From an uncultured Pseudomonadota bacterium (GTDB taxonomy: Bacteria > Babelota > Babeliae > Babelales > RVW-14), in NCBI GenBank assembly GCA_964388745.1, contig CAYMBP010000001.1, positions 28,244 to 92,243 of the forward strand: a stretch of 64,000 nucleotides of DNA, given 5' to 3'. Made by a program: the position numbers and the translations under genes. The notes beneath the pieces were generated by a model that was given only the letters and a program-made list of their open reading frames with translations, searched no databases and was not told the DNA's origin. Below, one piece after another: positions 15,459 through 16,731 of the stretch (position 1 is the stretch's first letter; every line of letters starts with the position of its first letter).

Positions 15459-15481
15459 GGTTAGTGCGTCATAATAATTTT
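15441..15481. terminator. bidirectional hairpin between convergent priA and the RING-like gene
   Basis: Perfect 9-bp stem: atgacgcac (15441-15449) pairs with gtgcgtcat (15465-15473). Flanked by A/T runs. Arm 1 lies inside the last priA codons. Confidence 0.55.
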
Positions 15482-16731
15482 TATAAGGGCATGTGGCTTC
15501 CGCGAACGGTGAGTAAATCATTTATATAAATAACATTTGTTGTATGATAATTAAGTAATATTGCTTCTTCTATTTTTTTATCAAACTCGCTTAGAGTGGG
15601 TGAAAGAGGGCCTCTGTTGAGATAAACAAGAAATGATTCTCTTGCAAGAAATCGGTTCGGCAGATAAGAAATAAGCTCGGATTGTGTATTTGGTGGTGAA
15701 CTAAGAGGAATAATAGTCTTATTTGGAATAACAAGCAGGCACTCTGCATTTAATTCAGAATGTCCTGGGTATAACTTTGCTCTCGCAATAGGCCAGCCAT
15801 TTCTGATAAGATTAAGTTGAATATCAAAGTTGCCGGATGCATCTTTTCTACATTCTATTTGGGCTTTTGGAGTTTCTGATAGATTGGTATCATATGAGCC
15901 TATATAGTTTACTGCGTAATCAAGGGAGAGTGAAGAACTGTAGGCTCTATTGTTTGAGTTTGATCTACTTGATGAGTTTGCTGTTGTTGAAGTGCTTGTG
16001 GTAGTTGTCGTTGTTGTTGAGGAGGTAGGTGGTGTTGATGATATGTTTGTTGGAGCTAGTGTTATTTCTGAAGCGTTATCTTTATCGTCAAGTGAAATTA
16101 TCATTGCACTTGCAGGAATAGAAGATTTTTTAGCCTTCTTTTTTGTTTGTTCAGTAGATTGTTTTGCAGACCGTTTTTGCTTTTTTTGTGTGAAAGTGCT
16201 TCCTGGGCATTGTGGACATCGATAACTTTCTTGCTCGTCTTGATCATTATTGTCATCAAGAGAAAAAGTATCAATTGCTTTGAGCCTTGAAATACAAGCT
16301 GTGTGAATTTTATGTGAGCAGCTATCAAAAGATATGATGTCAATAAAGCCATGACATACGTCGCACAACTTAATATTTTCGCTCTTTTCAGAAGCCTCCT
16401 GGCTGAGAATATCTGTTACAATGGTGAGTTTATTTTGAATCACTGTATATTGTTTTTCAACATCTTTTTCTTGTTGCTGCGCAGCATTTTTTTCTTGTTG
16501 ATCATAAGTTAATATTGCCTGAAGTGTAGGTATCGCTTCAATTTCTTTTTTAATTTCTTCAAGTTGATTTGTAAGAGCAACTATTTTTTGAAGAAGAATG
16601 TTTTTCTTTTCATTAAGGTTTTTTCTCTCATTTCGATTTGAATAGTATGAGATTTGGTCTGAAGACATTGCTTCAAGGCAACTCATAGAGCCAATCAATA
16701 ATAGGATGAATGATAGATGACGTGTAAGCAT
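15481..16731 (-). CDS. secreted coiled-coil protein with a RING-H2-type zinc-finger signature
   Basis: RBS GGAGGttttattATG. Signal-like 'MLTRHLSFILLLIGSMSCLEAM'. Residues 123-175 (nt 16207-16365) read C-x2-C-x11-C-x-H-x2-H-x2-C-x25-C-x2-C. Thr/Ser tract 'STPPTSSTTTTTTTSTSTT'. The C-terminal ~150 aa are unrecognised. Confidence 0.6.
   Translation of the reverse strand: MLTRHLSFILLLIGSMSCLEAMSSDQISYYSNRNERKNLNEKKNILLQKIVALTNQLEEIKKEIEAIPTLQAILTYDQQEKNAAQQQEKDVEKQYTVIQNKLTIVTDILSQEASEKSENIKLCDVCHGFIDIISFDSCSHKIHTACISRLKAIDTFSLDDNNDQDEQESYRCPQCPGSTFTQKKQKRSAKQSTEQTKKKAKKSSIPASAMIISLDDKDNASEITLAPTNISSTPPTSSTTTTTTTSTSTTANSSSRSNSNNRAYSSSLSLDYAVNYIGSYDTNLSETPKAQIECRKDASGNFDIQLNLIRNGWPIARAKLYPGHSELNAECLLVIPNKTIIPLSSPPNTQSELISYLPNRFLARESFLVYLNRGPLSPTLSEFDKKIEEAILLNYHTTNVIYINDLLTVRGSHMPL

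Follow-up and report, generated by a model that had tools for sequence, protein, structure and literature searches.

Bacteria that live in eukaryotic hosts can imitate the ubiquitin ligases (E3s) of the host, either with RING domains or with U-boxes, the latter having no zinc ligands. In LubX, GobX and RavN of Legionella (U-box-like), NleG of enterohaemorrhagic Escherichia coli (U-box), CAHE_p0026 of Cardinium (RING and ankyrin repeats) and NEX1b of Neochlamydia (RING/U-box and leucine-rich repeats), a domain that recruits ubiquitin-conjugating enzymes (E2s) is joined to a target-binding module (PMC5819833, PMC2891834, PMC5698495, PMC4209131). SneRING (SNE_A12920) of Simkania negevensis is an experimentally active RING E3 with UbcH5b and UBE2T, and its paralogue SNE_A08700, with all eight canonical ligands, scored poorly against profiles owing to a large insertion in a loop (PMC12591485). 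Here we describe a protein of 416 amino acids (aa) with a RING-H2-type zinc-finger motif, encoded on the minus strand (15481-16731) of a 64,000-nt stretch of contig CAYMBP010000001.1, which is called the window below. The window comes from a bacterium that we assign to the Dependentiae (TM6/Babeliales), judging from the relatives of a neighbouring gene. The protein is best filed as a highly divergent, eukaryote-like RING E3 effector candidate, which extends such candidates to the Dependentiae, with a putative Sec leader replacing the type III/IV signal. Because RING/U-box E3 mimicry by bacteria is well established, the advance is incremental.

The Dependentiae are a widespread, almost uncultured phylum of protist parasites. 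They are obligate intracellular parasites of protists, and in Chromulinavorax destructans signal peptides are reported on 44% of the coding sequences and on 78% of the ankyrin-repeat proteins, which are putative effectors, while the secreted set is enriched in ORFans (PMC6561590). Components of the type II secretion system (T2SS) belong to the core TM6 genes (PMC4776705). The effector domains named in the two papers are ankyrin, F-box, leucine-rich repeat (LRR), WD40 and TPR, and RING is not among them (PMC6561590, PMC4776705). A literature search combining Dependentiae, RING and ubiquitin found nothing relevant.

The motif occupies aa 123-175 (16207-16365, minus strand; CDVCHGFIDIISFDSCSHKIHTACISRLKAIDTFSLDDNNDQDEQESYRCPQC) and has the pattern C-x2-C-x11-C-x-H-x2-H-x2-C-x25-C-x2-C, with C123, C126, C138, H140, H143, C146, C172 and C175 as putative ligands. 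We scanned all six frames of the window with the regular expression C-x2-C-x(9-39)-C-x(1-3)-H-x(2-3)-[CH]-x2-C-x(4-48)-C-x2-C, and it turned out that this stretch was the sole match. A sequence-only reading of the same DNA had proposed a RING-H2 finger at these residues in this minus-strand open reading frame (ORF); the ORF is present, and both the spacing and the coordinates are exact, by the regular expression as well as by reading of the sequence. The pattern is not a product of composition. It appeared in none of 2000 shuffles of the window proteome (18,842 aa), nor did any of 20,000 shuffles of the 416-aa protein yield it, and about 1.4e-6 matches are expected per window from the measured frequencies of Cys (1.42%) and His (2.64%). 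Besides, six of the nine Cys of the protein lie inside this 53-aa stretch.

Several non-ligand residues typical of RINGs are present as well. RING-H2 fingers have the consensus block C-x-H-x-F-H-x-x-C-[IV]-x-x-W, and contact between RING and E2 relies on a hydrophobic residue before ligand 2, a hydrophobic residue or Trp on the central helix, a Pro that follows ligand 7 and a basic linchpin behind ligand 8. The window protein has Val125 (C-x-V-C), the block C-S-H-K-I-H-T-A-C-I-x-x-L and Pro173 (C-P-x-C). As read from the sequence, Val125, Leu150 and Pro173 are candidate contact residues, and Pro176 stands where the linchpin would be. Compared with the eukaryotic RING-H2 E3s (zf-RING_2; rice EL5, Arkadia/RNF165, RNF38, Rbx1), it shares the C3H2C3 order and spacing, along with C-x-[IV]-C, C-x-H-x-[FI]-H-x2-C-[IV]-x2-[WL] and C-P-x-C. 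It differs from them by a Leu for the conserved Trp, by 25 residues between ligands 6 and 7 and by the lack of an Arg after the last Cys.

Nearly all Pfam matches of the protein are RING/PHD-type families, and every notable one falls on aa 122/123-175, several over the full profile length. Ten such families match these residues at E<1. With the domain alone as query, the best match is PF24921 (XB3/XBAT31 RING) with 26.9 bits (E 5e-6; curated cut-off 50), followed by TTC3/DZIP3 (17.3 bits), zf-RING_5 (16.9 bits), zf-RING_UBOX (16.6 bits), zf-C3HC4 (16.3 bits; cut-off 21), PHD (16.0 bits; cut-off 24) and zf-RING_2 (14.3 bits; cut-off 27.3). As a control, 19 sequences in which the non-ligand residues were shuffled and the ligands kept were scanned against Pfam. 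Whatever the family, these controls scored 20.3 bits at most, some had no match, and none of the 19 matched PF24921. The real domain outscores all 19 shuffles and therefore its non-ligand residues add a modest RING-like signal. Scans with NCBIfam, PADLOC and PHROGs gave nothing meaningful.

The low profile scores are partly due to a 13-residue acidic insert (TFSLDDNNDQDEQ, aa 155-167; 16231-16269, minus strand) in the loop between ligands 6 and 7. When the insert was deleted in silico, zf-C3HC4_2 rose to 23.4 bits and zf-RING_2 to 20.4 bits. Against the Protein Data Bank (PDB), the insert-deleted query gave the RING-like domain of NSE1 (2ct0_A) as the best match with E 2.3e-4, and the other best matches were the PHD fingers of AIRE and CHD4 and the RING fingers of RCHY1 and PCGF6; this query is artificial, and much of its score comes again from the ligands. 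A loop insertion lowers the profile score in SNE_A08700 in the same way, and the window protein illustrates that divergent RINGs fall below profile thresholds when their loops carry large inserts.

NSE1 (NSMCE1), AIRE and CHD4 belong to the same superfamily of cross-brace binuclear treble clefs and are the best residue-level matches in the PDB after loop removal. They are of the C4HC3 type, whereas the window protein has Phe at their third Cys and C-x-H instead. We tried a PHD/RINGv C4HC3 reading of the finger, and it fails because Phe135 stands at the position of the third Cys (PHD ligand 3) in the alignments with AIRE and NSE1, and because the spacing is that of RING-H2, with only x2 and not x4-5 before His143 (C138-x-H140-x2-H143-x2-C146).

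The regular expression was also run on 20 related loci (342 kb), where it found one further match, in a 220-aa protein of a Babeliales metagenome-assembled genome (MAG; locus L001, 4702-5364, minus strand, contig JBAYHB010000090.1). This protein has a signal-like leader (MKKIALFCSILLMSTLILSGAAV), a zf-RING_2 domain (34.6 bits against a gathering score of 27.3) and ankyrin repeats, and its finger matches the solved RING-H2 E3s EL5, AtRMR1, Arkadia and RNF165. It resembles the window protein in its phylum, in the order of signal-like leader and RING-H2 and in its position a few kb downstream of ddl. It differs in that it passes the zf-RING_2 threshold, presumably binds its targets through the ankyrin repeats and has a length of only 220 aa, and there is no significant similarity between the two proteins beyond the ligand pattern. 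Since L001 carries a second, unrelated case, a signal followed by RING-H2 is a recurring design in the phylum.

By analogy, the closest characterised counterpart of the window protein is SneRING of Simkania. SneRING and SNE_A08700 belong likewise to an amoeba-infecting obligate intracellular host-dweller, and they share the arrangement of a RING, a linker and a C-terminal domain with no informative similarity. In contrast, SneRING comes from the Chlamydiota, which export effectors by type III secretion, and has an N-terminal finger with atypical ligands (Asn and His substitutions). In the window protein, a Sec-type leader and some 90 aa of predicted helix precede the finger, whose C3H2C3 ligand set is canonical and whose ligands 6 and 7 are set apart by an acidic insert. 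No sequence relationship between the two could be detected. The well-studied bacterial E3 mimics in general are delivered by type III/IV systems and have no Sec leaders, in which they differ from the protein described here. The view that RINGs are rare in bacteria, taken by the sequence-only reading, is broadly right, but the precedents SneRING, CAHE_p0026 and NEX1b make the window protein less surprising.

From N- to C-terminus, the protein consists of a signal-like leader, a helical region, the RING-H2 motif, a linker resembling a nuclear-localisation signal (NLS), a Ser/Thr tract and an uncharacterised C-terminal domain. The leader (aa 1-21, MLTRHLSFILLLIGSMSCLEA; 16669-16731, minus strand) was recognised by its hydrophobicity. 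A basic n-region (R4) precedes an h-region of some 11-14 aa, and the small residues found at -3/-1 make SMS|C or LEA|M candidate cleavage sites. The only hydrophobic segment of the protein is aa 5-23, the sole place where the 15-residue Kyte-Doolittle mean is above 1.6; a typical membrane helix would need a longer h-region. These features suggest a Sec-type signal peptide. The following region, aa 33-114 (16390-16635, minus strand), is predicted to be helical and coiled-coil-like by AlphaFold at low confidence (helices 33-65, 68-74 and 84-114, with a predicted local distance difference test score, pLDDT, of about 40-63).

Behind the finger, a Lys-rich linker (aa 183-202, KKQKRSAKQSTEQTKKKAKK; 16126-16185, minus strand) reads KK-x12-KKKAKK and fits the bipartite nuclear-localisation pattern; it may serve as an NLS. 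Then come a low-complexity tract rich in Ser and Thr, read from the sequence (aa 231-261; 15949-16041, minus strand), and the C-terminal region, aa 266-416 (15484-15936, minus strand), which is a candidate substrate-binding domain. This region had no Pfam match at E<=10 and no homologues in 1.84 billion representatives, and AlphaFold places beta strands in it at pLDDT <50. The architecture outlined earlier (an N-terminal hydrophobic leader, a helical region, which is here a low-confidence prediction, a K-rich linker, a Ser/Thr tract and a C-terminus of about 150 aa with no family) is all found.

We searched for homologues of the 416-aa protein in a database of 5.8 billion sequences and got only the self-match. 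HMMER, run exhaustively over 1.84 billion cluster representatives, again returned only the protein itself, plus one low-complexity match to the Thr tract. The loop-deleted RING query gave no candidates in a word-indexed protein database, the protein scans of metagenome and viral contigs had no match, and a degenerate DNA pattern for CDVCHGF-x8-CSHKIH occurred nowhere in the metagenomes. No collection searched contains an orthologue in which the ligands could be compared.

Taken together, we consider it somewhat probable, with a probability of roughly 55%, that the product of the gene is a secreted, lineage-specific effector of an intracellular parasite of the Dependentiae and that this effector is a RING-H2 E3 mimic; zinc binding, fold, secretion, E2 binding, ligase activity and host targets are what we infer from the evidence above. 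Taken by itself, a RING-type cross-brace zinc finger at aa 123-175 is predicted, and we rate it as probable. A eukaryote-like domain, orphan status, a variable slot (described below) and a host-dependent phylum come together in this gene, as in an effector. The interpretation as a host-directed effector had already been put forward in the sequence-only reading. The ligand spacing, the organism and the neighbourhood fit it, but no family threshold is reached, and the AT-richness once cited in its favour has no weight.

In the proposed mechanism, the leader would send the protein through Sec and then out of the bacterium, possibly by the T2SS, which is core to the phylum, or by outer-membrane vesicles, as has been suggested. 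In the host, the finger would bind two zinc ions in a cross-brace, with C123, C126, H143 and C146 as site 1 and C138, H140, C172 and C175 as site 2, and would dock the host E2~ubiquitin through Val125, Leu150 and Pro173, acting as an E3 ligase. Oligomerisation would probably come from the helical region (aa 33-114), nuclear targeting could come from the KK-x12-KKKAKK linker, and the orphan C-terminal domain would pick the substrates. If the protein is active, it would be a handle on effector delivery by a parasite with only Sec and T2SS, and on the host ubiquitin pathway that it rewires. The window orphan and the L001 protein suggest that Dependentiae also use RING-type E2 recruiters, apparently tagged for Sec rather than for type III/IV secretion.

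Several results weigh against this E3 effector reading. The Pfam search, which the sequence-only reading had recommended, does put RING/PHD-type families on the expected residues, but no Pfam RING family reaches its gathering score for the window protein. The generic RING families stay at 14-17 bits, no better than the ligand-preserving shuffles, and thus most of the profile signal is the Cys/His pattern itself. When hhalign was run against a five-sequence RING-H2 alignment (PDB hits and L001), it aligned only CSHKIHTACISR, with a probability of 1.9%. The residue after the last ligand is Pro and not the Arg/Lys linchpin of highly active RINGs. No homologue was found that could attest an evolutionary constraint on the ligands. 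Structure prediction gives no help either. AlphaFold of the whole protein as a single sequence had a mean pLDDT of 37.5 and is unreliable, and the models of aa 112-190 were helical and non-RING, also unreliable, with pLDDT 64 for the best of five and 38-45 for the others; a Foldseek search of the PDB with the aa 112-190 model gave no match, only noise. These models are unreliable because no alignment could be built, as no homologues exist. Finally, it is awkward that a Cys-rich zinc finger should cross the oxidising periplasm, and the sections of PMC6561590 and PMC4776705 cited here state no route of translocation into the host cytosol.

The alternative that survives best, though we think it rather unlikely, accepts a real cross-brace finger of the RING/PHD superfamily and takes it as a non-catalytic binding module. 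With its NLS-like linker, such a protein might act in the nucleus as a "nucleomodulin", reading chromatin or SUMO/ubiquitin-modified proteins, or it might sequester the host E2 with no transfer of ubiquitin. The ranking of PDB matches after loop deletion, where NSE1, AIRE and CHD4 stand above the classical E3 RINGs, speaks for it, as do an aromatic residue two positions before ligand 7 (Y170-R-C), like that of PHD fingers, the bipartite NLS-like motif directly after the finger and the absence of an Arg/Lys linchpin after ligand 8. It is opposed by the ligand order C-x-H-x2-H-x2-C, which is RING-H2 and not C4HC3 and leaves Phe135 at PHD ligand 3, by the presence of the E2-contact hallmarks Val125 and Pro173 and by the top Pfam match, which is an E3 RING family.

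It is unlikely that the protein stays in the bacterial envelope as a periplasmic, outer-membrane or surface protein, possibly a lipoprotein at Cys18, with the Cys/His cluster forming disulfides or holding a structural metal and the RING spacing being convergent. The Sec-type leader, the sequence GSMSC, which on reading fits the permissive PROSITE lipobox rule, the oxidising periplasm and the lack of fold or homology evidence above a curated threshold are all in line with such a location. What disfavours it is that eight positions match in both type and spacing, together with the non-ligand hallmarks and a score above that of all 19 ligand-preserving shuffles. Furthermore, the relative L001 combines a signal with a bona fide RING-H2 and ankyrin repeats, and the K-rich NLS-like and mucin-like Ser/Thr linkers are eukaryote-style features. 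Eukaryote-like effector candidates of this phylum, moreover, usually carry a signal peptide as their tag (PMC6561590).

A decaying or non-functional orphan ORF, in which the motif would be a relic, is very unlikely. The gene is indeed a singleton without homologue in a slot of fast turnover, but its frame of 416 codons is intact in a genome of 37% GC, with a strong Shine-Dalgarno sequence, a native codon composition, a strong terminator-like hairpin and all eight ligands intact. Hardly credible at all is a prokaryote-type RING that serves the bacterium's own ubiquitin-like conjugation or its defence against phages: although such families exist (Pfam Prok-RING_1) and ubiquitination-like defence operons of bacteria have been described, no Prok-RING family matches the window protein, no PADLOC model matches significantly (only E 0.015 over the helical region) and no phage family matches, no E1, E2, JAB or Ubl genes lie among the neighbours (priA, ddl, rpe, psd and an orphan), and an exported protein would not meet a cytoplasmic conjugation machinery.

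The gene of the effector candidate itself looks real. A Shine-Dalgarno sequence AGGAGG, read from the sequence, lies 7 nt 5' of its ATG (16739-16744, minus strand), its composition is typical of the window, and a hairpin follows its stop. This hairpin, found by folding computation at 15436-15477 between the convergent priA and RING genes, is a perfect 18-bp stem with dG -25 kcal/mol and z -7.7, and none of 200 shuffles folds as well. It is located directly 3' of the stop of the RING gene and overlaps the priA stop codon, and it is probably a bidirectional terminator; a consensus terminator scan did not report it. As for composition, the GC content of the RING gene is 0.353, compared with 0.385 for priA and 0.389 for ddl, so the earlier remark that this DNA is more AT-rich than its two neighbours is correct as far as they go. 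Within the window the gene is ordinary (GC z -0.51; GC at third codon positions, GC3, 0.245, z -0.70; n=44 ORFs), and the AT-richness is therefore no argument for foreign origin. We also considered recent horizontal transfer on the basis of composition and rejected it, as both GC and GC3 are ordinary.

To place the gene in its organism, we used the neighbour at 17847-20066 (minus strand), a tandem Ddl-Ddl fusion (D-Ala-D-Ala ligase) of 739 aa with two full sets of N and C domains in Pfam. Its relatives at 50-56% identity come from MAGs labelled Dependentiae, TM6 or Babeliales, plus some with generic bacterial labels only, and on these relatives rests the assignment of the genome to Dependentiae/TM6. 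The fusion is kept in all 20 of the related Dependentiae loci retrieved.

In the window, priA, a DUF374 gene and an M16 peptidase gene flank the RING gene on one side, and ddl-ddl, rpe and psd do so on the opposite side. Two of the related loci, L002 and L006, keep the order psd-rpe-ddl-[slot]-priA-DUF374-M16 but have unrelated genes in the slot between ddl and priA (15459-17846 in the window, 12449-15805 in L002 and 12341-15051 in L006). In L002 the slot holds a 1051-aa leucine-rich-repeat protein with a hydrophobic leader, and in L006 it encodes a GT2 glycosyltransferase together with two small membrane proteins. In each of 16 related loci a different stretch of DNA follows ddl, and it encodes mostly proteins with signal-like N-termini and no family assignment. 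Thus the RING gene and its orphan partner sit in a fast-evolving slot. Among the stretches after ddl we noted an LRR protein, a GT2 glycosyltransferase, a metallophosphatase and a PT-HINT-like protein.

The partner is a co-oriented orphan gene at 16775-17701 (minus strand), coding for 308 aa (303 aa from the second Met). It lies upstream, 43 nt from the RING gene, and is possibly co-transcribed with it. A promoter-like site is located upstream of it at 17763-17735, in a region where the promoter scan is at background (11 sites against 10.5 expected). The protein search for this orphan returned the self-match only, Pfam had no match, and no paralogy with the RING protein was found. It has a signal-like hydrophobic segment at aa 22-37. 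It contains the motifs QNIGTVCGH and WHWISVVV...D, from which we considered a Josephin/papain-like deubiquitinase in its C-terminal part; this idea is unsupported, as comparison with the Josephin domain of ataxin-3 (BLASTP), Pfam and the PDB gave no support for a protease.

The upstream orphan also has two similar acidic repeats resembling SUMO-interacting motifs (SIMs), namely IITIDSDSEEDND (aa 44-56, 17534-17572) and ITIDLSEDED (aa 75-84, 17450-17479). The strict SIM pattern occurs only twice in the 18.8k aa of the window, and shuffles of the upstream orphan give P of about 0.02. In the RING protein, a weaker SIM-like motif, MIISLDDKD (aa 210-218; 16078-16104, minus strand), which does not fit the strict pattern, lies between the NLS-like linker and the Ser/Thr tract.

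One could read the two adjacent orphans as a split SUMO-targeted ubiquitin ligase that is exported by Sec/T2SS and not injected by type III/IV secretion, an idea that we hold to be highly improbable. The SIM-like repeats of the upstream protein, together with the weaker IISLDDKD and the bipartite NLS of the RING protein, would then mimic an RNF4-type enzyme in the host nucleus. To our knowledge, no bacterial mimic of an RNF4-type enzyme has been known before. If true, such a split ligase would also indicate for the first time that effectors of Dependentiae with signal peptides get into the nucleus of the host.

Elsewhere in the window, a 177-aa protein (9533-10066, minus strand) matches the chlamydial histone-H1-like nucleoid protein Hc2 (Pfam HC2, 61.5 bits). 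By this match, a chlamydia-like condensation of the nucleoid may be hinted at in this Dependentiae bacterium, and the HC2-type gene is the cause of a strong negative AT skew at 9500-10250. An 837-aa protein (30284-32797, minus strand) has a C-terminal bacterial EndoU nuclease domain (34.7 bits) in a polymorphic-toxin-like architecture. Besides, genes for DabA (744 bits) and a DabB-like proton-antiporter subunit are adjacent at 25349-28935 (minus strand). This DabA/DabB-like pair suggests an inorganic-carbon uptake module, which is unexpected in a metabolically reduced parasite.

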